Assembly (NCBI GenBank): GCA_050012735.1
Contig: JBEKGP010000005.1
Span: forward strand, 1 to 54,907
Source: Candidatus Dormibacteria bacterium
GTDB taxonomy: Bacteria; Chloroflexota; Dormibacteria; Aeolococcales; Aeolococcaceae
Direction: 5' to 3'
Length of the DNA stretch: 54,907 nucleotides
The notes beneath the pieces are model-generated. The model had not been told where the DNA came from. It saw nothing but the letters and a program-made list of their open reading frames with translations, and searched no databases. Positions within the stretch are counted from its first letter, which is position 1, and each line of letters begins with the position of its first letter. A program made the position numbers and the translations under genes. This document shows positions 30,114 through 46,035 of the stretch, one piece after another.

Positions 30114-30188
30114 GTGGTCTCCTCAGGTGTCACAGGCCCGCCATTCTGAACGACGGGACGGCTTGGGCGGTGGCGCCGGCCGCCCACG

Positions 30189-30270
30189 TGCGCGGGCCGA
30201 GACTCGAACTCGGACGGGTCACCCCACGGGATCCTAAGTCCCGCGCGTCTACCGGTTCCGCCACCCGCGC
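30189..30270 (-). tRNA. tRNA-Leu (anticodon TAG), CCA not encoded
   Basis: GCGCGGG/CCCGCGC acceptor stem, D arm, CGGGA-CTTAGGA-TCCCG anticodon arm, long variable arm, CCGAG-TTCGAGT-CTCGG T arm, discriminator A. Confidence 0.96.
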
Positions 30271-31010: not shown

Positions 31011-31382
31011 ATGGCCGCCAAGGAGCACTGGAAGACCGAGCCCGACGATCACGATTACCCGGCCGCCTCCGACTACCTGAGCCTGATCATGGACAAGGGA
31101 GAGGTCAGCAACGCGGTGGCGGCACTGCGCAAGGCCGCGATCACCCACTACAAGGCCAAGGATCTGTTGAGGGCCAGCCGCCTGGAGCTGCTGCCGGCCG
31201 ACAACGTCCATGTCAAGAAGGACCTCGGCAAGGTCCAGGCTGGGAACCTCCTCTCGCCGGTCCTGCTGATACGTGGTCGGGTGGATGCCGACGTACCGCT
31301 GACGGTCGCCGATGGGTTCCACCGGATCTGTGCCAGTTACCACCTGGACGAGGACGCGGACATCCCCTGCCGGATCGTCTGA
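31011..31382 (+). CDS. Conserved hypothetical protein, ParB/sulfiredoxin-like fold
   Basis: SD AGGAGA; LSPVLLIRG...VADGFHR matches the ParB/Srx DGxHR motif; typical codon usage. Confidence 0.75.
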   Translation: MAAKEHWKTEPDDHDYPAASDYLSLIMDKGEVSNAVAALRKAAITHYKAKDLLRASRLELLPADNVHVKKDLGKVQAGNLLSPVLLIRGRVDADVPLTVADGFHRICASYHLDEDADIPCRIV

Positions 31383-31642: not shown

Positions 31643-33085
31643 TTAGGCGTCGTAGTAGAGGAGGAACTCGTAGGGGTGCGGGCGGAGGGCCACCGGGTCC
31701 ACCTCGTTCTCGCGCTTGTAGGCGATGTAGGTCTCGATCACGTCGGGGGTGAAGACGTCCCCCTTGAGCAGGAAGTCGTGGTCGGCCTCCAAGGCGTCGA
31801 GGACCTCGGGCAGCGAGCCCGGGAGATCCTTGACCTGGGCGGCCTCCTCACCCTCCAGCTCGTAGAGATCGGCCTCGATCGGCTTGGGCGGCTCGATCTT
31901 GTTGGCGATGCCGTCCAGACCCGCCATCAGCATCGCGCTGAACGCGAGGTACGGGTTGCAGGTGGGGTCGGGAGAGCGGAACTCGAGGCGCCGCGCCTTG
32001 GGCGAATCGCTGTAGGTCGGGATCCGGATGCAGGCGCTGCGGTTGCGCGCGCTGTAGGCGAGCTTGATGGGTGCCTCGTAGCCGGGGACCAGCCGGCGGT
32101 ACGAGTTGGTGGTGGGCGCGGCCAGAGCGAGCAGTGCCGGAGCGTGCTTCAGCAGGCCGCCGATGTACCAGCGACCGAGGTCGCTGAACAGCGCGTAGCC
32201 GTTCTTGTCGTAGAAGAGCGGGACGCCACCCTGCCAGAGCGACTGGTGGACGTGCATCCCGCTGCCATTGTCACCAAAGAGCGGCTTGGGCATGAAGGTC
32301 GCGGTGTAGCCGTTCTGAGCGCAGACGTTCTTGACGATGTACTTGAACTGCAGAACGTTGTCGGCCATCATGGTGAGCGGGCCGAAGCGCATGTCGATCT
32401 CGGTCTGCCCCGCGGTGCCGACCTCGTGGTGGTGCACCTCGATATCCAAACCGGACTCGAGCATCTTGAGGACGATGCGGCTGCGCAGGTCCTGGAGCTG
32501 GTCGGCCGGCGGGACGGGGAAGTACCCCCCCTTGAGCTTCGGACGGTAGCCGAGGTTGGCACCGTCGCGACCACTGTTCCAGATGCCCTCATCGGAATCG
32601 ATGTGGTAGTAGCCCTCGTGGGAGTTCTGGTCGAAGCGCACCGAGTTGAAGATGTAGAACTCGAGCTCCGGGCCCCAGTACGAGAGGTCCGCCACACCTG
32701 ACTTGGCCAGGTAGGCCTCAGCCTTCTTGGCGATGTAACGCGGGTCGCGCGAATACGGTGCCCTGGTCAGCGGGTCCTTGACGTCGCAAACGATCGCCAG
32801 GGTCGGGACTTCCAAGCACGGGTCGATGAAACAGCGAGTCGGGTCCGGGAAGAGGAGCATGTCGCTCTCGAAGATCTTCTGGAACCCGCGGATCGAGGAG
32901 CCGTCGAAGCCGATCCCGTTCTCGAAGAGGTCGTCGTTCAACTCGCTCACCGGGATGCTGAAGTGCTGCCACGTGCCGGGCAGGTCGGTGAAGCGCACGT
33001 CCACGAACTTGACGCCCGCTTCCTTGGCCCGCTTGATCACGTCCTTCGGGGTGGCCCCGCCTGCTTGTTTGGTCTCGTCTGCCAT
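31643..33085 (-). CDS. glnA: Glutamine synthetase type I (GSI-beta)
   Basis: [19 protein letters not shown]-beta insertion, [47 protein letters not shown] adenylylation-site motif. Confidence 0.97.
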
Positions 33086-33220: not shown

Positions 33221-33270
33221 TTGTGCGCCGAGCACAAAAGGGTGCCCGGCGACTTGCGTTGATTGCACAG
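33221..33270. promoter_or_regulatory. Two TTGTG-N7-CACAA-type boxes upstream of glnA
   Basis: TTGTGCGCCGAGCACAA (33221-33237) and TTGCGTTGATTGCACAG (33254-33270); minus-strand -10 TAGGCT at 33158-33163. Confidence 0.68.
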
Positions 33271-33344: not shown

Positions 33345-33632
33345 CTAGGCGCGCGGCTTGATCTCGTCGAGCTTGGCCCGGGCTCCCGCCTTGTCCTTGA
33401 AGTACAGCTTGTTGATGTCGACGTAGGCGATCTGAGCCGTCGGGACATCCTCCTCGGCGAAGATCGCGTCGACGGGGCACGGATCGACGCATGCGCCACA
33501 ATCGATGCATTCATCGGGGTCGATGAACACCATGCGGTCGTCGTCGGTCTCGTGGATGCAGTCCACGGGGCAAACCTCGATGCAGGCCTTGTCCTTGAGG
33601 TCAACGCAGGTTTCGGTGACGATGTAGGTCAT
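33345..33632 (-). CDS. fdxA: Ferredoxin (FdxA-type, 3Fe-4S/4Fe-4S)
   Basis: [23 protein letters not shown]...[22 protein letters not shown]. Confidence 0.93.
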
Positions 33633-33717: not shown

Positions 33718-34086
33718 TCAGTGGCCCCAGTGCTCGGCCTCGAGGTGGCGGATGGTCAGGTCCCCCCGCTCCCCGGTCCGGATGCGCACGGCCTCGTCGA
33801 CCGGGAGGATGAAGATCTTGCCGTCGCCGATCTCGCCGGTGCGGGCGGCCGCGGCGATCGCCTCGACGACCGCCTCGACCCTGGAGTCCACCACCACCGC
33901 CTCGACCTTGACCTTCCGCTGCAGGGAGATGTGGACGCGGGTGCCCCGGTACATCTCGGTGTAGCCACGCTGACGGCCGCAGCCCAGCACCTCGGTGATC
34001 GTCAGCCCGGACGTCCCCAGAGTGTCGAGGGCGTCCTGGACGGCCTGGAGCCGATCCGGCCGGATGATGGCCTCCACCTTCCTCAT
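33718..34086 (-). CDS. glnK: P-II family nitrogen regulator
   Basis: EAIIRP, G.GRQRG.TEMYRG T-loop, TGEIGDGKIF, RIRTGE; ATGA overlap with amtB. Confidence 0.95.
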   Translation of the reverse strand: MRKVEAIIRPDRLQAVQDALDTLGTSGLTITEVLGCGRQRGYTEMYRGTRVHISLQRKVKVEAVVVDSRVEAVVEAIAAAARTGEIGDGKIFILPVDEAVRIRTGERGDLTIRHLEAEHWGH

Positions 34087-35552
34087 CTCGTCGTCTCTCC
34101 TGGGACTGCGGCGAGTCGCTGACGAGTCGCCCCGGCAATAGCGTCAGGGTGAATATAGGCCCCTCCGGGCACCGGCATGAAGCTCTCCGGGTAACCCCAC
34201 ATGCCGTGCTCGCTGATGTCGAGGCCCTCGATCTCGTCGCGCTCGCTCGCCCTCAGCCCAACCGTCCTCTTGATGATCCAGAAGAGACCGAAGGAGAGGC
34301 AGAAGACGGTCGCGAAGATGGAGAGCACCGCCGCCGCCTGGGCGCCCAGCTGGGCCCAGTTCCCCGTGTAGAAGAGCCCGCCCCGGCCGACGCCGTCGAC
34401 CTTGGCGAGCAGGGGGTCGGCGAAGAGGCCGCAGGAGAGCAGGCCCCAGACGCAGGCCAGTCCGTGGGCGGAGAGGGCTCCGAGGGGGTCGTCGATGAAC
34501 TTGTCGATGAAGTAGACACCGAAGACGACGATCACCCCGGCGATGGCACCGATGATCAGGGCGGCCAACGGCTGAACAAATCCGGACGGAGCCGTGATGG
34601 CGGCCAGTCCCGCGATCGCCCCGTTGCCGATCATGCCGACATCGAGGCTCTTCTGCCGGACGTAGATGACGGTCATGGCGGAGAGCGCCCCGGCGGCCGC
34701 CGCCAGGTTGGTGACGATGAGAACGTCGGCGAAGTGCAGGTTGAGGGCCTCGAAGGTGGAACCCGGGTTGAAGCCCATCCACCCGAACCAGAGGATGAGC
34801 ACGCCGAGCTGGGCGAGCGGCATGTTGTGCCCCGGGATCGCGTTGGGCTTGCCGTCGCGGCCGTACTTCCCGATGCGCGGCCCGAGCAGGAGGAGCCCGG
34901 CGAAGGCGGCACTGGCACCGGTGAGGTGGACCACGCCCGAACCGGCGAAGTCCTGCACCCCGAGGCCGGCACCCAGCCAGCCACCACCCCACACCCAGTG
35001 GCTGATCAGAGGGTAGATGAAGCCGGCAAAGGGGATGGCGAAGAGGATGTAGACGATGAACTTCGTCCGCTCCAGCATCGTCCCCCAGACGATCGCGAGG
35101 GAGATGGCGCAGAAGACGAACTCAAAGAAGAATTTGGCCGCCGCGGGGACGTCCGACCCGCGAAGGGCGGGCAGATCCAGTGTCGAGCCCGGGGTGAACG
35201 AGGGGAAGAAGCCTGCCCCGCCGCCGATGAGGTGGCCGAGGAATCCGCTCCCGGCGCCGAAGGCGAGGGCGAAGCCCACACCCCACCACATGATCGAGCT
35301 GATCGAGAGGTTGACGATGATCTTGGCCACCACGGTGCCGACGTTCTTCATGCGGGAGAAGCCGACCTCGAGCATGGCGAAGCCGGCCTGCATGAAGAGG
35401 ACCAGCATCCCGGCGAGGATCACCCAGACGGTGTCGACGGCGACGCCCGCGCTCTGGGCCGTCACCTGAGTGGCGGCATGGGTGACGAGCGGGAAGGTGG
35501 CCCCGACGATGGCCAGGCTGCCGCCGGCGCGAACGCGCGCGATTGGTCGCAA
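34083..35552 (-). CDS. amtB: Ammonium transporter
   Basis: FMQAGFAMLEVG, HWVWGGGWL, DFAGSGVVH, WFGWMGFNPGS, IDDPLGALSAHG. TTG start inferred from a GGAG SD. Confidence 0.95.
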   Translation of the reverse strand: MRPIARVRAGGSLAIVGATFPLVTHAATQVTAQSAGVAVDTVWVILAGMLVLFMQAGFAMLEVGFSRMKNVGTVVAKIIVNLSISSIMWWGVGFALAFGAGSGFLGHLIGGGAGFFPSFTPGSTLDLPALRGSDVPAAAKFFFEFVFCAISLAIVWGTMLERTKFIVYILFAIPFAGFIYPLISHWVWGGGWLGAGLGVQDFAGSGVVHLTGASAAFAGLLLLGPRIGKYGRDGKPNAIPGHNMPLAQLGVLILWFGWMGFNPGSTFEALNLHFADVLIVTNLAAAAGALSAMTVIYVRQKSLDVGMIGNGAIAGLAAITAPSGFVQPLAALIIGAIAGVIVVFGVYFIDKFIDDPLGALSAHGLACVWGLLSCGLFADPLLAKVDGVGRGGLFYTGNWAQLGAQAAAVLSIFATVFCLSFGLFWIIKRTVGLRASERDEIEGLDISEHGMWGYPESFMPVPGGAYIHPDAIAGATRQRLAAVPGETTR

Positions 35553-35619: not shown

Positions 35620-35670
35620 GTGGGCGCCGCGCACCAAATGATGGCCAGGTTTTCTGGACGCAACGCACAA
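35620..35670. promoter_or_regulatory. Degenerate TTGTG-N7-CACAA-type boxes upstream of amtB
   Basis: GTGGGCGCCGCGCACCA (35620-35636) and CTGGACGCAACGCACAA (35654-35670); minus-strand -10 TAGGTT at 35591-35596. Confidence 0.55.
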
Positions 35671-37385: not shown

Positions 37386-37498
37386 TTGTGCGGTGGACAC
37401 AACTGACCACGTGGCAATGAGACTAGCTGGAGGACCCCACCGATCAGAACGCCACTTTAGCCCCAAGATCCGGCCGTTATTTTGGGCGCTCTGCCCAA
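37386..37498. promoter_or_regulatory. Two TTGTG-N7-CACAA-type boxes flanking the APC permease promoter
   Basis: TTGTGCGGTGGACACAA (37386-37402) and TTGGGCGCTCTGCCCAA (37482-37498); minus-strand -10 TAGTCT at 37420-37425. Confidence 0.68.
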
Positions 37499-37598: not shown

Positions 37599-38933
37599 TC
37601 AGAGGTAGCGGTCGAGCTCCCAGTCGGTGACATGAGCCGAGAACTGCTGCCACTCCAGTCGCTTGGCCTCGGCCAGCCGCTCGACCAGCTCCGAGCCCAG
37701 GGCGTCGACGATGACGTCGTCGCTCACCAGGGCCGCGACCGCCTCGTTGAGCGAGCTGGGAAGGGAGCGGACGTAGCGGCTCTCCACCGCCTCGGGGTCG
37801 AACTCGTACGCCTGCTCCTCGAGCGGAGGGGACAGCGGAAGCTCCCGCTCGATGCCGTCCAGGCCGGCGGCGAGCATGGCAGTGAAGGCGAGGTGGGGGA
37901 TGCAGGCGGCATCGGGGCAGCGCAGCTCCACCCGAGTGTCGGTGCCCTCGGCCGGGCTCACCCGGGGGACGCGGATCAGAGCGCTCCGGTTGTTGTGGGC
38001 CCACGTGATCTGGGCGGGCGCCTCGTAGCCGGCGATCAGCCGCTTGTAACTGTTGACGACCGGGGCGGTGACCGCGGCCAGCGCGGGCGCGTGCTCGAGC
38101 TGGCCGGCGATGAAGTGGCGGGCCAGCGGCGAAAGGTGGTACCGATCCTCCGCGTCGAAGAACAGGTTGGCGCCATCGCTCGTGCGGAGCAGCGTCTGGT
38201 GAGTGTGCAGACCGCTCCCGCTCACGCCGGCGAGGGGCTTGGGCATGAAGCTTGCACGCAGCCCGTGGGTCCCGGCCATGGCCCGCGCTGCGACCCGCAG
38301 CAGGAGGACCGCATCGGCGGCGGCGAGAGCCCCCTGGGAGGCCAGGTCGATCTCGTGCTGACCGCCGGCCACCTCATGGTGGCTGCTGCCGACGTCGATG
38401 CCCAGCTCCAGCAGGGTCGTCACCAGCTGGTCCCGGGCGCGGGTGCCCGCGTCGAGCGTGTCATCGAAGTAGCTGGCGGTGTCACTGGAGCGTGGCCGGC
38501 CACCCTCGGCCAGATCAAAAAGGAAGAATTCGACCTCACAGCCGACGTGGTAGGCAAAGCCGAGGTCGGCGGCGCGCTGGAGCTGCCCGGCCAGCACGGC
38601 CCGTGCGTCACCGGAGAAGATCTCGCCGTCCGGAGTCCGGAGGTGGCAGAAGACGCGCATCACCGGGCCGCCGTCCGCCACCTCCCAGGGCACCGCGGTC
38701 AGCGTCGCGGGATCGGGAACCAGGTACATGTCACTCTCGAGCACCCGGGCGAAACCCTCGATGGCCGAACCGTCGAACCACGCTCCCCGCTCGCAGACCT
38801 CGGCGAACCGCGAGGCGGGGACGTTGACACAGTTGACGGTGCCGAAGAGGTCGACGAACTGCAGCTGCAGGCGCCGAGCTCCCGCCTGCTCGAGGCGGTG
38901 CACGGCGGCGGCGACGTCGTCAGGCTCGTTCAT
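37599..38933 (-). CDS. Glutamine synthetase family protein (GSI-alpha-like paralogue)
   Basis: FDGSAIEGFARVLESDM, CEVEFF, HHEVAGGQHEI, KPLAGVSGSGLH, KRLIAGYEAP, NRSALIRVP, VELRCPD. Confidence 0.92.
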   Translation of the reverse strand: MNEPDDVAAAVHRLEQAGARRLQLQFVDLFGTVNCVNVPASRFAEVCERGAWFDGSAIEGFARVLESDMYLVPDPATLTAVPWEVADGGPVMRVFCHLRTPDGEIFSGDARAVLAGQLQRAADLGFAYHVGCEVEFFLFDLAEGGRPRSSDTASYFDDTLDAGTRARDQLVTTLLELGIDVGSSHHEVAGGQHEIDLASQGALAAADAVLLLRVAARAMAGTHGLRASFMPKPLAGVSGSGLHTHQTLLRTSDGANLFFDAEDRYHLSPLARHFIAGQLEHAPALAAVTAPVVNSYKRLIAGYEAPAQITWAHNNRSALIRVPRVSPAEGTDTRVELRCPDAACIPHLAFTAMLAAGLDGIERELPLSPPLEEQAYEFDPEAVESRYVRSLPSSLNEAVAALVSDDVIVDALGSELVERLAEAKRLEWQQFSAHVTDWELDRYL

Positions 38934-39925
38934 CGATGCTCCAGAAGGATGGTGATGACCACGGCAAGGACGATGAACAGCGTGAAGCCGGCACCGATCA
39001 GACCGCCGAGGAGAAGTATCCGCCGATCGGTCATCGTCGAGCCGGCGCGCTCCGGACCGAGCACGAACTGGGCCAGGTCGATGTCGTCGAGATGCTCGAG
39101 GTCGTGGAGCATCTCTGCGGCCGACTGGTAGCGCTCCTCCGGATCCTTGCGGATCGCCTTGTGGATCACCGCGCCCAGGGGCGGCGACACGGCTCGATTG
39201 CGTTCGTGGAGAGGCGTCGGCGGATCGTGGACGGTCTGGCTCATGACGGCCAGCGCGTTATCCCCCACGAAGGGCACCTGGCCGGCCAGGAACTCGTAGA
39301 GCATGATGCCAAGCGCGTAGACATCGGTCCGCTGGTCCCCCCGCTTGCCCTCTATCTGCTCGGGCGCCATGTAGTCGGGGGTGCCCAGGCGGTCGTTGAG
39401 ATATCGCCACGTCACGCGCCGCGCGCCCGCCATCAGGGCGATGCCGAAATCGAAGAGCTTTAGCTGCCCCTGCGCGGTGACCAGGACGTTCTCCGGCTTG
39501 AGGTCGCGATGGGCGATGCCGTGAGCATGGGCGTGAGCCAGCGCGCCGGCGAGCTGCCTACCGTATCCGACCGCCTCATCGACACCGAGTGGCAGCCGGC
39601 CCCGCAGGTTCTGGCGGAGGGTCTCGCCCTCGACGTACTCCAGCACCAGGTACGGACGGCTGCGGTCGTCGCCCACGTCGAGAGAGCGCTGCACGTTCGG
39701 ATGGTCCAGGCGGCGTGCGATGGCCGTCTCTCTGCGAAAGCGCTCGAAGGTCTGCGGGTCCCCGATGATTGCGAGTGACGGCACCTTGAGCACCACCCGC
39801 ACCTGGGTGCGCTCGTCGATGGCCTCGTAGGCCTCGCTGAAGCCGCCCTCACCCAGCCTCCGCACGATGCGGTAGTGATCGACGACGGAGCCTGCGCTCA
39901 GCTGGCCCTCGGATGCCACCGTCAT
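38930..39925 (-). CDS. Hanks-type Ser/Thr protein kinase with a C-terminal TM anchor
   Basis: LGEGGFS, VVLK, HRDLKPEN, DFG, GTPDYMAPE, DVYALG; terminal hydrophobic helix; ATGA overlaps at both ends. Confidence 0.95.
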   Translation of the reverse strand: MTVASEGQLSAGSVVDHYRIVRRLGEGGFSEAYEAIDERTQVRVVLKVPSLAIIGDPQTFERFRRETAIARRLDHPNVQRSLDVGDDRSRPYLVLEYVEGETLRQNLRGRLPLGVDEAVGYGRQLAGALAHAHAHGIAHRDLKPENVLVTAQGQLKLFDFGIALMAGARRVTWRYLNDRLGTPDYMAPEQIEGKRGDQRTDVYALGIMLYEFLAGQVPFVGDNALAVMSQTVHDPPTPLHERNRAVSPPLGAVIHKAIRKDPEERYQSAAEMLHDLEHLDDIDLAQFVLGPERAGSTMTDRRILLLGGLIGAGFTLFIVLAVVITILLEHR

Positions 39926-40755
39926 CTCCACGGAAGCCAGCGCCGCCCACGGTCCGGGGCCCGCGCCTCGACGGGCCCCGCGATCCGGGCGACAATCACG
40001 CTGACATTATCCGGAGCCCCCCTGGCGATCGCAACCTGGATCAGAGAGGCGGCGACGGCCCCGGGGTCGAGGTCGGCGGCCACCTCGTTGACGATCTCCT
40101 CACGGGTCAGCTCGCTCCACAGGCCGTCACTGCAGAGCACGAACACGTCGCCCTGCTGAATCGGGCGGCGGCTGATGTCGACGTTCACAAAGAGTTCGGC
40201 GCCCAGGCTGCGGGTCAGCTGGTTGCGAGCCGGATGATGAACGGCCTGCTCCGCGGTGATGATGCGCAGCCGGAGCATCTCCATGGCCTGGGTGTGGTCA
40301 GAGGTGCACTGAACGATGACGCCGTCGCGGATGAGGTAGACGCGGCAGTCCCCGACATGGCCGATCAGCGCCTCGTGGGCGGTGAGCACCAGGGCGGTGG
40401 CGGTGGACTGGAGATTGAACGCCTCCGGGTGGCTCTGCGAATGATTCCAGATCGCGAGGTTGGCGGCGTTGAACGCCTGGCGAAGCCAGCGCTCGGGCCG
40501 GTCGGGACTGGGTTGTCCCTCGGCCAGAGTTTCGACGACCAGGTGGCTGGCGACCTCCCCCGCCCGGTGACCGCCGAGGCCGTCAGCGACCGCGAAGACG
40601 TGGAAACCGCATTCCGGATCACTGCGGACGAGCACCGCGTCCTCGTTGTTCTGGCGGCAGGGCCCGGTATCCGTGCGCCCCGCGGCACGCACCGTGGGCA
40701 CGGAGGCGAAGGGTCCCGCCGGTCTCGCCGTTTCCGTGCCGGGAGCGAGCCGCAT
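39922..40755 (-). CDS. PP2C/PPM-family Ser/Thr phosphatase
   Basis: RQNNEDA, VADGLGGH.AGEVAS, HVGDCR, LTRSLG, LCSDGL, DNVS; ATG 7 nt after TAGGGT. Confidence 0.94.
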   Translation of the reverse strand: MRLAPGTETARPAGPFASVPTVRAAGRTDTGPCRQNNEDAVLVRSDPECGFHVFAVADGLGGHRAGEVASHLVVETLAEGQPSPDRPERWLRQAFNAANLAIWNHSQSHPEAFNLQSTATALVLTAHEALIGHVGDCRVYLIRDGVIVQCTSDHTQAMEMLRLRIITAEQAVHHPARNQLTRSLGAELFVNVDISRRPIQQGDVFVLCSDGLWSELTREEIVNEVAADLDPGAVAASLIQVAIARGAPDNVSVIVARIAGPVEARAPDRGRRWLPWR

Positions 40756-40874
40756 CCCGCCAACCCTAAGGACCGGCGCCCCGGGCGGGCTAGGGTCTTC
40801 GCGTCCCACCGGTGGGGGCCCGGGGATGGGCGCAACGCCCAACACGCGCAGGACGACCGGCTTGCTCGCGCCGG

Positions 40875-42497
40875 TCAAGCCGAAGCCTGGAGGACGTCGC
40901 GAATGCGCAGGCAGAGCTGGAGATTGAGCCGGGTATCGGGATCGCTGAGGCGGAGATGTCCCACGTCCTCGATGCGCCGGAGCCGGTAGAGGACCGTGTT
41001 GCGATGCAGCTTGAGCCGCTGAGCGGTCTCGGTGGGAGAGCCATGGCACCGGAAGAATGCGTCGAGGGTGCGCAGCAGGTCCCCTCCCCCCTTCTCGTCG
41101 TAGTCCATGAGCGCACCGATGCTTTCCCGATAGAACTCGTGCACCTCGGGGTGCTGGGCCATCGAGTAGAGGAGGCGGTGGAGACCGAGATCGGCAAAGG
41201 ACACCACGCTCGCCGTGCCGTCGAGCTTGAGCCCCATGCCCAGGGCCTGTTCGGCCTCGCGGTGCGAGTTGCGGACGCCGCCGAGCCCATGCTTGGGCCG
41301 GCCGATGCCGACCGCGACGGGGACACCCCCGACCGCCGAGCGGCAATCGGCGGCGAGCTCCAGGGCCGCGCGGCGGAGGTCGCCGAGGTCGGCGCCGGCG
41401 ATGACGGCCACCGCGCCCTGGTGAGCGGCGGCGAGCACGGTCAGCTGGCGCCGCTGGGCCCAGCGCTGTACCGAGCGGACGCCGCTCTCCGGCCAACCCT
41501 GAGGGGCGGGACCCGCGGGGCGCGCTGACGGGCGCACCACCATGACGACGGACTCGTCACCCAGCGAGGCGCCGACGCGGCGCGCCCGCTCCAGCATCGA
41601 CGCCTCCGACCCGTAGGCGCCGGTGAGGAGTGCGGTGGCGAACTCCCCCTCCAGGTCGTCCCGGGCGGCGAGAACTGCCCGCTCCCGGTCCAGCTCGATG
41701 GCGCAGGCCGAGGCTGCCCGGGCGCAGCCGAGCCGGGCCAGCTGTCCCAGGTCCCCCTCCGCTCCGAGGACGGAGATGAAGCCCCCGATGCCGTCGCGGA
41801 GAGGGATGGGAGCCACCACCCGGGCAAAACCCGGAGCGCCCACCGAGAACTCGCGAACGGGAGGATTGGCCGCGAGGACGACCGAGGAGTCTGCGAAGCG
41901 GCGCACCGCCGGCATCTCCTCAGCCCACGGCCCGGCCGCCACCGCGGCGGGAATGGCTCCAGCTTCGTGGCGAAGCTCTCCCGACTCGTCCTGCCACGCG
42001 GCGGCGAGCTCCAGAAGCTCGGAGAGACGGTCGACGATGCCGGCCGGGCCGGCACTGTTGAGCGCCAGCTCCATCAGCTCGGTCTGCAACTCCTGGGCAC
42101 GGTCGTGGAGCGCGGTCCGCTGGTCCAGGATGAAACGCGTGGTGGCCTGCTGCACGTCGGCGAGGTGGGCCTGTTCGGGCAGCAGCAGCAGGGGAAGCAT
42201 CAGGCGGTCGGCCAGCTCGATCGAGGCGGCGGCCACGTCGCCGACGACAGCCGCAGCCACCCCACCCTTGTCGGCGAAGCTCTCCAGGACCCGGGTGAGG
42301 TCAAGGCGCTCATCGAGCAGCTTGATCGAGCGCACCGCGATGAAGGCGATCTCCCCTCCCTTGATCGCCTCGAAGGCGGGCGGCCGGGTGCGCAACGAGG
42401 TGGCCCAGTCGACCTGCCGCTCCAAGCCCGCCCGGCCTCCGAGCAGGTCGGTGCCAGCGGGCAGGGCACCGCGCCAGAGGTCCATCACCGTGATCAC
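40875..42497 (-). CDS. PucR/CdaR-family transcriptional regulator
   Basis: N-terminal ITVMDLW...GRAGLER.V.W PucR domain; GGDEF-like middle; C-terminal LLRTLDAF...TAQRLKLHRNTVLYRLRRI HTH. Confidence 0.93.
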   Translation of the reverse strand: MITVMDLWRGALPAGTDLLGGRAGLERQVDWATSLRTRPPAFEAIKGGEIAFIAVRSIKLLDERLDLTRVLESFADKGGVAAAVVGDVAAASIELADRLMLPLLLLPEQAHLADVQQATTRFILDQRTALHDRAQELQTELMELALNSAGPAGIVDRLSELLELAAAWQDESGELRHEAGAIPAAVAAGPWAEEMPAVRRFADSSVVLAANPPVREFSVGAPGFARVVAPIPLRDGIGGFISVLGAEGDLGQLARLGCARAASACAIELDRERAVLAARDDLEGEFATALLTGAYGSEASMLERARRVGASLGDESVVMVVRPSARPAGPAPQGWPESGVRSVQRWAQRRQLTVLAAAHQGAVAVIAGADLGDLRRAALELAADCRSAVGGVPVAVGIGRPKHGLGGVRNSHREAEQALGMGLKLDGTASVVSFADLGLHRLLYSMAQHPEVHEFYRESIGALMDYDEKGGGDLLRTLDAFFRCHGSPTETAQRLKLHRNTVLYRLRRIEDVGHLRLSDPDTRLNLQLCLRIRDVLQASA

Positions 42498-42537
42498 CTG
42501 GATCTCCAAACCGGGGGGCCGCCATCCCGATCGTTCA

Positions 42538-43878
42538 TCAGGCGCGCTCCAGGTACTGCTCCTGCTCCCACGGAGTGACCTGAGTGCGGTACTCCTTCCA
42601 CTCCAGGGCCTTGACCTCGAGGAAGCGCTCCGACAGCGTGTCTCCCAGAGCGTCGAGCACCACCTCATCCGCCTCGAGGGCGGTGATGGCGTCCTTGAGG
42701 TTGTCGGGGAGGAGCCCGACGTTGCGACGCTCCAACTCGACATCGTCGAAGCCGTAGAGGGACTCCTCGACCGGAGGCGGCAGGGGCAGGCGGCGCTCGA
42801 TACCGTCGAGCCCGCAGCGGAGCATCACGGCGAATGCCAGGTAGGGATTGCAGGACGGATCGGGAGAGCGCAGCTCCACCCGGGTGACCTCGGGACGGCC
42901 GACATGGGGGACCCGGACCAGGGCGCCACGGTTGGTGCGGGCCCAGGAGACGAAGACCGGGGCCTCGAACCCGCGCACCAGGCGCTTGTAGGAGTTGATG
43001 AGAGGCGCCAGCACCAGGCACATCCCGGCGGCGTGGTGGAGCTGGCCGGCGATGAAGTGCTTGGCGACGTCGCTCAGCCCGTAGTCGTCGTCGCCCGCGA
43101 ACGCGTTGCCGCCGTCGCCGGTCCGGGCCAGCGACTGATGGACGTGCATGCCGCTCCCCGGCTGTCCCTGGAAGGGTTTGGGCATGAAGGTGGCGGTGAG
43201 ACCGTGCTGCTGGGCGATGGCTCGGAGCGTGTAGCGGAAGGTGACCACGTCGTCCGCCGCTTTGAGCGCCTCCTGAGCGCCCACGTCGATCTCGTGCTGC
43301 CCGCACCCCACCTCGTGGTGCAAGGTGTTGACCTCGAGCCCCATGGCCCGGAGCTGCTCGGCCATGGTCTGGCGAACCGCCACGGTCGGGTCGGTGGCGA
43401 AGTCGAAGTAGCTGCCTCGGTCGTGGCGGGGCTGCACCGGCCGGCCCAGCTCGTCGCGCTCGAGCAGGTAGAACTCGATCTCCGGCCCCACCCGGTATTC
43501 GAAGCCGAGCGCCGCCGCGCGCTCGGTCGCCCGCCGCAGCGCTCGCCGGGGATCGCCCGGGTAAGCCTCTCCCTCGGGGGTCGTGAGCCAGCAGATCATC
43601 CGCCCGGTCGGCGCCTCAGCCCACGGCAGGACGGCAAACGTGGTCGGGTCGGGTACCAGATACATGTCCGACTCTGCGGTGCGGGCGACCGACTCCACCG
43701 ATGAACCGTCGAACCACACCCCGTGCTCCAGCGCCGAGGCCAGCTGGTCGGCGGGAATGGTCACCGTCTTGACCGACCCGGTGACATCGGTGAACTGGAG
43801 ATCGAGGTGGCGGATGCCGGCTGCCTGGGCTGCGGCGACTGCGTCGGGGATCTCGGGGCGGTGGCGGGGGGAGGCCAT
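42538..43878 (-). CDS. Glutamine synthetase family protein (GSI-alpha-like paralogue)
   Basis: FDGSSVESVARTAESDM, GPEIEFY, HHEVGCGQHEI, KPFQGQPGSGMH, KRLVRGFEAP, NRGALVRVP, VELRSPD; SD GAGGTG. Confidence 0.92.
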   Translation of the reverse strand: MASPRHRPEIPDAVAAAQAAGIRHLDLQFTDVTGSVKTVTIPADQLASALEHGVWFDGSSVESVARTAESDMYLVPDPTTFAVLPWAEAPTGRMICWLTTPEGEAYPGDPRRALRRATERAAALGFEYRVGPEIEFYLLERDELGRPVQPRHDRGSYFDFATDPTVAVRQTMAEQLRAMGLEVNTLHHEVGCGQHEIDVGAQEALKAADDVVTFRYTLRAIAQQHGLTATFMPKPFQGQPGSGMHVHQSLARTGDGGNAFAGDDDYGLSDVAKHFIAGQLHHAAGMCLVLAPLINSYKRLVRGFEAPVFVSWARTNRGALVRVPHVGRPEVTRVELRSPDPSCNPYLAFAVMLRCGLDGIERRLPLPPPVEESLYGFDDVELERRNVGLLPDNLKDAITALEADEVVLDALGDTLSERFLEVKALEWKEYRTQVTPWEQEQYLERA

Positions 43879-43994
43879 GAGCACCTCGGATGGCAGAGGC
43901 TCCTGACCAGAGCCTCCTGATTCGTACCCTGCGCCTAAGGATATCGGACGCCAGCTCAGGATGTCTAGAGGGAGCCCGGCCATCTTGCGCCGTC

Positions 43995-44023
43995 CCGCGC
44001 ACCAAATGAGACGGGACGCACAA
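43995..44023. promoter_or_regulatory. Putative regulator sites upstream of the GS-PucR operon
   Basis: CCGCGCACCAAATGA (43995-44009) is identical to 35627-35641 upstream of amtB and is followed by ACGCACAA as there. Confidence 0.55.
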
Positions 44024-44220
44024 GGCCCTCACGCGCCCGTGCCGGCGGGGGCGCTGCGACGGCCCCACATCCGTCCGGTGACGGCCGGACACCGCGGGAT
44101 GACGAATCGCACCAATGGGTGCAGGTGCACTACAGAACTTTGGCGTCCGTTGCTCTTGGGCGTCCCAGACCGGCCCCGGAGAATGAACCCATCCAATCGC
44201 GCTCCACGAAAGAAAGAGAC

Positions 44221-46035
44221 GTGAGCCTCCCCCATCCGACCCTCCTCAGCCCCCCCATCTCCCCGCCCTGGGCGCACCCCAGCCCGCGGGGTTCCCGTCG
44301 CGGCAACCGCCTGGACCGGATCCTGGAGGCCATGACCCGGATCAGCGCGGAGAGGGATGTCGACTCGGTGCTGGCCGCCGCGGGCGGAGCCGTCGTCGAA
44401 CTCCTCGAGACCCGCAGAGCGTCCCCGGTGATCGCCCGGGTGTACAGGATCGAACGCGACAGGATGATGGTCGTCAGCGAGCACGGCGCAGCAGCCGATG
44501 CCACCACCGTCGGGGAGAGCCGTCTCCTGATCGCCGATCCACTCATCCTGGCTGCGGTCACCGGGGACCGCACCCTGGCCGAGGCGGGAGCCTCCCCCCG
44601 CCGGATCGCAAGCCCCGTCCACGCCGGGACCGTGATGCGGGCAGTGGTGCTCGCCGAGCGGCGGGGCCGGGCGTTTCGAGACTCCGAGGTCACCATGGTC
44701 GAGGGGCTGAGGGGGATCGTCACCCTCGCGGTCTCCAACCTGGTCCACTCCCGCGGGATCGCCGGGGCAGCGGAGGAGCCGCCCGATGCGGTCACGGGCG
44801 TGATGGGCCGCGCTGCCTTCGAGCGGCACTGCCGGGAGGTGCGCGAGTCCTTCGCGATCATCTCGGTCGACGTCGACCATCTCAACCAGCTCAACAACGC
44901 CCTGGGTTGGGAGGCCGGCGACAACGCCCTTCGCTCCGTGGCCCGCGCTCTCCAGGCATCGACGAGGGAGCGTGACGTGGTCGGCCGCACCGGCGACGAT
45001 GAGTTCACGATCCTCACCATCGGGGCGGCCACCGCCGTGGTTGGCAGCGTTGCCGAGCGCATGCGTGCCGCGGTGTCCGAACTCGTCACCGGAGCCCTCC
45101 CGAGTCGGGTCAGCGTCGGCTGGGCGGTGGGCGCGGCCGGCGAGGACGCCGGCGAGGTGTGGACTCGGGCGGACGCAGCGCTCGGCCGCGCCAAGCGCCA
45201 GGGACGCAACCGCGTGGCCGGGTCGATCACCGGCCGCCCGGGGGCGGCCCCCGGAAGAGGATGGACAACCCTGCTCAGCCGGACCCTGGCCTCACAGCAG
45301 ATCCACCCTGTGTACCAGCCGATCGTCACCCTCCCGGAGGCGCGCATCGTGGCCTACGAGGGGCTGGCGCGGCCCGTCAACCTGGACGGGGCGGACAGCG
45401 TCGAGGAGTTCTTCGCCACGGCGCAGCGGCTGGGCGTGACCAATGAGCTGGACTGGATCTGCAGGCGCGCCGTGGTCCGCGGTGCCGAGGGCATCCGCAG
45501 CGACGCGCAGCTCTACCTCAACATCGACCTCTCCGCGGTCTCCGACGTTGACGAGGACGTCGAGCAGATGCTCAGCCTTCTGCGCTGGATCGGCCGGCCT
45601 CCCGCCAACGTGGTCCTGGAGATCGCCGACGCCGGCCGCTTCACCAATCTCGGTCAGCTCTCCGCTCGCGTCGACGTCTACCGCCGGGCGGGGTTCAAGA
45701 TCGGCATCGACGATGCCGGCCGGCCCGGGATTGGGGTCGACCTGCTTTACGCGACGCGCCCCGAGATCATCAAGATCGATGCCAGCGTGACCAATCGCTG
45801 CGAGGAGGTCGGGGCCCGGTCGCTCATCTTCGAATGCATCGCGCTCGCCGAGCAGATCGGCGCCGATGTCGTGGCCGAGGGCATCGAGCAGCTGAGCGTC
45901 GCCACTGAACTGATGAAGCTGGGAGTGAACCGAGCCCAGGGCTTCCTCTTTGGCAAGCCGGAGTCGCTCACCGGACCGAACCGCGAGCTCGAAGGGGAGC
46001 CCGCGTTCCTCCGGGCGGTCGCCGTCACGCGCTGA
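44221..46035 (+). CDS. GAF-like + GGDEF + EAL domain c-di-GMP metabolism protein
   Basis: DVDHLNQLN..LG..AGD, RTGDDEF, YQPIV, YEGLAR, IDDAG, IKID, AEGIE, QGFLFGKP. Start codon uncertain. Confidence 0.9.
   Translation: MSLPHPTLLSPPISPPWAHPSPRGSRRGNRLDRILEAMTRISAERDVDSVLAAAGGAVVELLETRRASPVIARVYRIERDRMMVVSEHGAAADATTVGESRLLIADPLILAAVTGDRTLAEAGASPRRIASPVHAGTVMRAVVLAERRGRAFRDSEVTMVEGLRGIVTLAVSNLVHSRGIAGAAEEPPDAVTGVMGRAAFERHCREVRESFAIISVDVDHLNQLNNALGWEAGDNALRSVARALQASTRERDVVGRTGDDEFTILTIGAATAVVGSVAERMRAAVSELVTGALPSRVSVGWAVGAAGEDAGEVWTRADAALGRAKRQGRNRVAGSITGRPGAAPGRGWTTLLSRTLASQQIHPVYQPIVTLPEARIVAYEGLARPVNLDGADSVEEFFATAQRLGVTNELDWICRRAVVRGAEGIRSDAQLYLNIDLSAVSDVDEDVEQMLSLLRWIGRPPANVVLEIADAGRFTNLGQLSARVDVYRRAGFKIGIDDAGRPGIGVDLLYATRPEIIKIDASVTNRCEEVGARSLIFECIALAEQIGADVVAEGIEQLSVATELMKLGVNRAQGFLFGKPESLTGPNRELEGEPAFLRAVAVTR

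Follow-up and report, generated by a model that had tools for sequence, protein, structure and literature searches.

Do two glutamine synthetase (GS) paralogues that bracket a PucR-family regulator and a phosphatase-kinase pair form one signalling module, as an earlier note on this DNA proposed, or is the run composed of separate units? The window considered here, that is the whole analysed stretch of 54,907 nucleotides, is contig C5 of the 2.6-Mb genome (G000) of an uncultured soil bacterium, Candidatus Dormibacteria bacterium, and it carries a minus-strand cluster in which GS-A and a gene of the PucR family are followed by PP2C, a Ser/Thr kinase and GS-B and then by an APC permease, amt, PII, a ferredoxin-like gene and glnA. 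The best explanation of the whole, in which we have good confidence, is a nitrogen regulon controlled by the PucR-family protein (hereafter PucR) and extended by a separate kinase cassette that was probably added later. The gene identities given previously were right, the first five genes being intact minus-strand frames, as was the placing of an intact GSI-beta (type I GS, beta) glnA about 4.5 kb away. The genes are as follows.

42538..43878, minus strand: GS-A, GSI-alpha-type paralogue of a Chloroflexota clade, 446 amino acids, Arg62 and Glu304 equivalents kept
40875..42497, minus strand: PucR-family regulator, 540 amino acids, with PucR domain, GAF-like middle, GGDEF-like domain and HTH_30; likely activator of the regulon
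39922..40692, minus strand: PP2C-type Ser/Thr phosphatase, catalytic motifs present, start codon approximate
38930..39925, minus strand: Hanks-type Ser/Thr kinase, 331 amino acids, with intact catalytic motifs and a single C-terminal membrane helix but no extracellular sensor domain
37599..38933, minus strand: GS-B, GSI-alpha-type paralogue of the cassette lineage, 444 amino acids
35765..37372, minus strand: APC-family permease, single copy in the genome, accessory cassette member
34083..35552, minus strand: amt, ammonium transporter, start approximate
33718..34086, minus strand: PII protein, overlapping the amt stop
33345..33632, minus strand: small ferredoxin-like gene, with a Cys pattern in its sequence
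31643..33082, minus strand: glnA, GSI-beta, all 18 classical residues

PP2C and the kinase, and likewise the kinase and GS-B, overlap by 4 bases; GS-A and PucR are 40 bases apart, PucR and PP2C about 182, and the 5' side of glnA at 33082 lies 4.5 kb from GS-B. These three are the only GS genes of the genome, and every gene tested in the cluster is under purifying selection (ratio of non-synonymous to synonymous substitution rates, dN/dS, 0.045-0.18 in 13 comparisons).

The proposed regulon shows in the promoters, where glnA, amt-PII, the permease and the PP2C operon each have upstream a 17-base palindrome, TTGTGC-N5-GCACAA, or a variant of it.

33221..33237: operator before glnA with perfect arms; TAGGCT starts 57 bases on (33163); weaker second site at 33254-33270
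35654..35670: amt-PII operator, with TAGGTT 57 bases on (35596) and a second site at 35620-35636
37482..37498: permease operator, with TAGTCT 56 bases on (37425)
37386..37402: second permease site, directly ahead of the ribosome-binding site
40826..40842: variant operator of the PP2C-kinase-GS-B unit, TTGGGC-N5-GCCCAY, with TAGGGT 57 bases on (40768)
43922..44023, minus strand: GS-A/PucR promoter, with weak operator at 44007-44023, -35 TAGACA (43967), -10 TATCCT and weak second site at 43922-43938

The form TTGTG-N7-CACAA occurs twice in the window, where 0.16 copies would be expected, both times within the cluster, and the 2.6-Mb genome has no other perfect copy. The relatives compared were 40 genomes, 24 from the same family and 16 from a sister family. 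When one locus per genome was counted and sites within 2 mismatches of TTGTGC-N5-GCACAA were accepted, the operator was present before glnA in 19/19 cases, amt in 15/17, the permease in 6/6, GS-A in 11/25 and GS-B in 1/7, and it was absent before the control genes PucR (0/25), ferredoxin (0/22), PII (0/19), tig (0/11) and clpP (0/6); random windows of 333 bases contained it in 4 of 600. The PP2C promoter bears a 3-mismatch variant at the same position and with the same spacing to TAnnnT in 6/6 genomes. Whilst the operator arms are conserved, the spacer is free. Among promoters with a matrix score of at least 8 and an operator at least 75 bases from the gene start, TAnnnT starts 56-57 bases past the operator in 41 of 43, against 3 matches at other distances (range 20 to 74). 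A promoter scan found no sigma-70 -35/-10 pair in the glnA, amt, permease and PP2C promoters. An upstream operator without a sigma-70 pair is typical of activator-dependent promoters, and this is the layout that we infer from sequence for these four. The GS-A promoter is different: both -35 and -10 are present, the weak operator is 63 bases from the -10, and the 56-57 spacing recurs in only 3/19 GS-A promoters. A terminator scan of the cluster gave nothing beyond shuffled controls. Metatranscriptome contigs from 90-99% relatives span most of the cluster (4 runs); with small shares, possible DNA carry-over and no starts, they were not used.

The presence of the operator follows that of GS-A and PucR, which are a conserved unit tied across the phylum. 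Orthologues of each occur in 23/24 family genomes and both are absent from the same genome; at the orthologue level neither was found in the 16 sister-family genomes. The two genes are adjacent in 19/20 fetched regions, the remaining one being a 2.7-kb contig, and in a phylum sample each occurs in 10/13 genomes and is absent from the same three. In the nine genomes lacking both orthologues, no site within 1 mismatch precedes glnA and one occurs at 2 mismatches, and the matrix score of the glnA promoter does not exceed 10.6, compared with 20-27 in 18 family loci, which are mostly the training loci (two rows were dropped from this comparison, L027 as a contig end and L026 as the same genome as L390). 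A perfect site is found in 98/301 phylum genomes, and outside the class operators are again found next to PucR, glnA, amt and GS-A. There, a PucR match lies within 1.5 kb of the GS-A orthologue in 18 of the 64 Chloroflexota genomes with both positions listed, from seven families. Family f13 appeared to contradict the association, with a perfect site in 15/15 genomes and PucR matches at 1e-35 in 0/15; in four of five such apparent exceptions (the two f13 genomes that were tested and two further genomes), the GS-A orthologue is directly preceded by a more distant PF13556 gene. In two f13 loci (L377, L378) the PucR-type frame before GS-A has only about 365 amino acids instead of 540, and a perfect operator lies between the PucR-type gene and the GS.

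PucR itself scores over the cut-off for PF07905, PF17853 and PF13556, the same domain set as in Bacillus subtilis PutR and in AdeR, GabR, CdaR and the characterised PucR. Its model (predicted local distance difference test, pLDDT, 88.7) has a fold that matches PucR/CdaR-type structures (C-terminal parts of Rv2242 and BAD_0249) as well as GAF domains. It does not fall into the characterised subfamilies AdeR, CdaR, PmfR and Rv1453, scoring 33-60 bits against NCBIfam equivalog cut-offs of 600-800. In the excerpt of PMC7652997 used here, PutR binds a 17-bp inverted repeat and has its activator position upstream of the promoter, like the operator in the window, and the PucR-type proteins studied are activators, except for the characterised PucR, whose action is dual. 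Because the palindrome is a 17-base inverted repeat like that of PutR and has a position typical of activators, PucR is the predicted binder, and that it acts as an activator at this site is a prediction we regard as likely. Given the target genes, nitrogen limitation is the presumed signal: when nitrogen is short, PucR would bind the palindrome and turn on glnA, amt-PII, the permease and the PP2C-kinase-GS-B operon. An NtrC-type (NtrBC) reading of the sites was set aside, as sigma-54 (PF04552) was found in 0/5 genomes (87-93% complete). GlnE was likewise not found in the 5/5 genomes searched; glnA (31643-33082) keeps the Tyr397 equivalent all the same.

A different assignment would have the palindrome bound by another regulator, with PucR an activator of local, substrate-specific role that is in the cluster by coincidence, and several observations speak for it or against PucR as the master of this regulon. 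The attribution of the palindrome to PucR derives from co-occurrence, and other regulator families have been only partly excluded as binders, OmpR-type GlnR and TetR-type AmtR having been outside the searches. The HTH recognition helix is common to unrelated PucR-family paralogues, so that it does not single out PucR as the binder. In genome G203, the fifth of the apparent exceptions, glnA has a perfect operator and none of the three PF13556 genes adjoins a GS; family f4 has weak PucR matches in 9/10 genomes and GS-A matches in 0/10. Outside the class GS-A-PucR adjacency is absent in 46/64 genomes, and 19/30 fetched perfect sites have no query gene of any kind within 1.5 kb. Furthermore, a genome-wide matrix scan gave 12 sites at a score of at least 15 compared with 1-12 for shuffled matrices, so that the matrix alone defines no regulon; the consensus was derived from this window and the matrix from relatives that are not independent of one another. 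Set against this are the joint loss of operator, PucR orthologue and GS-A described above; the operator often found, in other classes, upstream of PucR's own gene (L154, L155, L157, L162); and the finding, in genus g13 of sister family f2, of a palindrome of the TTGTGG-N5-CCACAA type, the known PutR site, 3-5 kb from a different PucR paralogue in 4/6 genomes (G029:C47, G030:C22, G031:C78, G038:C58). On balance, a foreign binder with PucR as a bystander appears improbable. Sister-family glnA promoters (L025, L028, L029, L030) share a degenerate TGGTGT-N5-GCACGA-like site 96 bases before the start, which is perhaps a drifted operator for another PucR paralogue.

With PucR as the probable activator, the next question is how the nitrogen signal would reach it. 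Because the model matches GAF domains, the protein could sense a metabolite itself, and a small molecule bound directly by its own sensor domains is a route to which we give close to an even chance. PII as the input is unlikely and some other route more unlikely still. The glutamine-bound state of GS-A, in turn, is a possible but doubtful input, and it requires a closer look at the two paralogues.

Both GS-A and GS-B are GSI-alpha proteins by length (about 445 amino acids), by the lack of the GSI-beta insertion and by their closest solved structures, which are GSI-alpha enzymes; they may make glutamine and be under feedback inhibition. Against TIGR00653 (cut-off 429.15) GS-A scores 467 bits and GS-B 428 bits, just under. 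The motifs read in the sequences are FDGSSVESVARTAESDM and FDGSAIEGFARVLESDM, GFEAP and GYEAP, and QPGSG and VSGSG, in agreement with what had been reported for the FDGS Asp, the flap Glu, the ARxxESDM Arg and the VSGSG/QPGSG loops; the S53A change of GS-B comes in addition. Of the 18 classical residues, as listed in the accessible part of PMC8394153, GS-A keeps 17 (N264P), GS-B 16 (S53A, N264S) and glnA 18, and the Bacillus and Paenibacillus reference enzymes also keep 17 (H271N). The loss of Asn264 does not mark a sensor: among 20 family orthologues of GS-A, 15 have Pro at this position, 4 have Asn and 1 has Ser, Asn is kept by 21 of the 25 orthologues from other Chloroflexota, and the replacement is also found in GlnA2 polyamine glutamylases. 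Because Asn is kept in most Chloroflexota orthologues, its loss is recent and the pairing of GS-A with PucR is older. The GS-A clade probably includes working enzymes, since a GS-A-type protein is the sole PF00120 match in one Anaerolineales genome.

On the sensor hypothesis, feedback-inhibited GS-A would bind PucR and stop activation, as a separately evolved counterpart of the Bacillus GS-TnrA/GlnR systems, in which a GSI-alpha enzyme and a nitrogen regulator likewise share an operon; this would refine, and not replace, the PucR-controlled regulon. It draws on the tight phylum-wide pairing and joint loss of GS-A and PucR, on the complete GSI-beta enzyme, which makes GS-A dispensable as the main enzyme, and on a GS-A/PucR promoter whose own -35 and shifted operator would be expected of a constantly made sensor pair. 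Moreover, GS-A retains the equivalents of Arg62 and Glu304, which hold glutamine in the feedback-inhibited enzyme and serve GlnR binding (PMC9249791, in part). Against it stands the retention of Arg62 in nearly all GSI-alpha proteins and in GlnA2, and a regulator adjoining its own target would account equally well for the pairing. Matches are also unequal in number, 222/301 phylum genomes having GS-A-like proteins and 102/301 PucR. According to the same excerpt of PMC9249791, GlnR and TnrA are MerR-like regulators whose C-terminal tail (SRF in GlnR) is inserted in the GS active site, and an aromatic of the D50 loop stacks on the GlnR Arg; the regulator here is of PucR type and lacks such a tail, its C-terminus not being conserved, and the loop aromatic is Val in GS-A. 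No MerR-like regulator with a GS-binding C-tail was found in the GS operon, and the GSI-alpha enzyme is here an extra copy beside GSI-beta. A complex prediction for GS-A with full-length PucR, one copy each, gave a score of 0.00 and a mark of 0.32, which counts neither way; on GS, the site known to be used by a regulator is built from several subunits. Overall, glutamine sensing by GS-A is a doubtful possibility. Its widest form, in which Chloroflexota nitrogen control would be run by a PucR-type global activator set by a feedback-inhibited GSI-alpha as glutamine sensor, a second and independent invention of the Bacillus logic, with a mobile permease-kinase-phosphatase-GS switch plugged in through the operator in some Dormibacteria, is likewise doubtful. 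Away from any GS, contig C7 (L401:1134-2358) has two small tandem MerR-like genes with a response regulator between them, which by motif we take to be HspR-like.

The proposal that both paralogues act as a pair fares worse. In that version GS-A and GS-B would be one hetero-oligomeric sensor that, together with the kinase and the phosphatase, controls PucR; the five genes are collinear in the window, in five relatives and in locus L056, and an identity of 50% between the two GS proteins leaves mixed rings possible. However, 18 of the 23 family relatives with GS-A and PucR lack GS-B, the kinase, the phosphatase and the permease, the operator and promoter between PucR and PP2C split the run, and the cassette is widespread without this PucR or its operator. 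Nor do the trees support a pair: GS-A falls within a Chloroflexota GSI-alpha clade, GS-B joins the GS of other permease-PP2C-kinase cassettes (support 95/93), and both are separate from actinobacterial GlnA2. Long-branch references were left out of two of these trees, and a third was a quick tree; GlnA2 was represented by Tsukamurella and Nonomuraea, not by S. coelicolor. In approximately unbiased (AU) tests, a clade of GS-A with GS-B, as from a local duplication, was rejected (p 0.023), as was GS-A as a GlnA2, tested as a clade of the two (p 0.012), rejections that are only moderate because GS-B sits on a long branch. A joint sensor is thus very improbable. What stands of the proposed module is a nitrogen-signalling region with PucR tied to GS-A and a plausible regulon; a single module bracketed by two GS is not supported. 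The arrangement is not due to chance, but consists of two units: the gene order of GS-A and PucR is conserved, whereas the full five-gene run is limited to 6/41 relatives.

PP2C, kinase, GS-B and permease form the second unit, a separate mobile accessory block. Kinase, permease and GS-B occur in the same 6/41 genomes, inserted between PucR and amt. A survey of the best 80 metagenome loci of kinase relatives, 78 after removal of two near-identical ones, showed PP2C at 63 loci, the permease at 51, a GS at 41, amt at 21 and PII at 10, and 35 of 37 loci of at least 8 kb had at least one of GS, amt, PII and permease. The usual order is permease-PP2C-kinase-GS, the permease being last in the window, where an APC permease of the same subfamily, a PP2C, a tail-anchored kinase and a nitrogen gene are all present. 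Named carriers are one Chloroflexi and one Gemmatimonadales contig, and relatives of the permease occur in Methanoregula and Actinomycetota. The Gemmatimonadales locus (L109) has a possible porin-like gene, permease, PP2C, an inverted kinase, a GS variant with altered residues and then glnA. Because an operator within 1 mismatch was found in 0/78 cassette loci, the cassette likely gained its operator in this lineage, and was likely added to PucR control later.

Adjacent membrane kinase and PP2C genes are known from PknB-PstP and PrkC-PrpC, and the actinobacterial PknG-GlnH-GlnX-GarA system links phosphorylation to nitrogen and amino-acid status. In comparison with PknB-PstP and PrkC-PrpC, the kinase here has no PASTA or other outer domain and is constantly accompanied by an APC permease and by a gene for GS, Amt or PII; the scores of PP2C and kinase are below the Stp1 and Stk1 family cut-offs. 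Since the only membrane part of the kinase is one terminal helix and it lacks an outer domain, the permease is its likely sensing partner, and judging by gene linkage, kinase and PP2C would most likely determine how far the permease or GS-B is phosphorylated. PII was considered as a target through Thr49 and rejected, as relatives lacking the cassette also have this residue, while two that carry the cassette have Ala there. The PII T-loop (33718-34086) has Thr49 and Val51, and thus presumably no uridylylation Tyr.

The substrate of the cassette may be an amine. GS-B, and perhaps GS-A too, could act as a gamma-glutamyl ligase of GlnA2 type on an amine or polyamine imported by the APC permease, with kinase and phosphatase tuning the scavenging. 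In the passages of PMC8998196 consulted, Streptomyces GlnA2 glutamylates polyamines and keeps D50 and E327 but lacks S53 and N264, so that a kept flap Glu does not argue against amine glutamylation. S. coelicolor GlnA2 keeps D50, Y179 and E327 and has lost S53 and N264 as GS-B has, with N264P as in GS-A, so that GS-B has the whole pattern and GS-A only the N264 change. Both losses are common to 5/5 closest cassette relatives of GS-B, GS-A has Pro at 264 like both actinobacterial GlnA2 references, and permease, kinase and GS-B co-occur in their six genomes. On the other hand, neither paralogue groups with GlnA2, which is a separate clade adjoining glnE in the reference locus L241, and many cassette GS keep Asn and Ser (e.g., L291 and L313, with 18/18). 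The paralogues also keep D50, Y179 and E327, which are lost in PauA7 and GlnA3 (PMC5403932, in the portion used), and with NF045547 scores of 318 and 290 bits against a cut-off of 650 they are not of the PuuA/PauA7/GlnA3 type. A full-length PuuD-type hydrolase (PF07722) was found in none of 5/5 genomes, which gave partial C26 matches only, and the cluster is devoid of oxidase or dehydrogenase genes. Amine glutamylation is thus a tentative proposal with appreciable minority weight; otherwise, GS-B would be a phosphorylation-tuned GS variant.

Known members of the PucR family mostly run one catabolic operon in response to its substrate. The PucR of the window differs in having a GS paralogue as partner and, by prediction, core ammonium-assimilation genes as targets. 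The literature searched, which covered few subscription papers, contained neither a described nitrogen regulator for Chloroflexota, including any PucR nitrogen regulon, nor a published description of a permease-PP2C-kinase-GS cassette. This is likely, then, a real and conserved nitrogen regulon of a known regulator family that has not been described, with an attached uncharacterised kinase cassette, and the PucR-type protein is probably a master switch of nitrogen control not described before. The gap matters in that Chloroflexota are a large phylum of soil and sediment, without sigma-54 and GlnE in the five genomes searched, and it can be tested directly, the protein being named, the operator exact and the promoters predicted. 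If the model holds, the PucR family would extend from local catabolic activators to global nitrogen control, and a Ser/Thr kinase cassette wired into a nitrogen regulon would lend independent support to a nitrogen-scavenging role of the cassette.

A few observations concern the surroundings. Elsewhere in the genome, tandem operator-like sites (G000:C37:11431-11454, L219) stand directly before a polar amino-acid ABC transporter (PF00497, PF00528, PF00005), a candidate regulon member, and a second ammonium transporter gene with operator-like sites lies at G000:C51:393-506 (L224); three relatives (L032, L033, L037) have an additional amt with a 1-mismatch operator inside the cluster. Between tig and glnA the window has a tRNA-Leu (30188-30270), followed by two small ORFs (open reading frames; one in the 30508 region, the other at 31011-31382 without Pfam match). 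Divergent from GS-A, a GGDEF-EAL protein is encoded at 44119-46035 and stays its neighbour across the genus.

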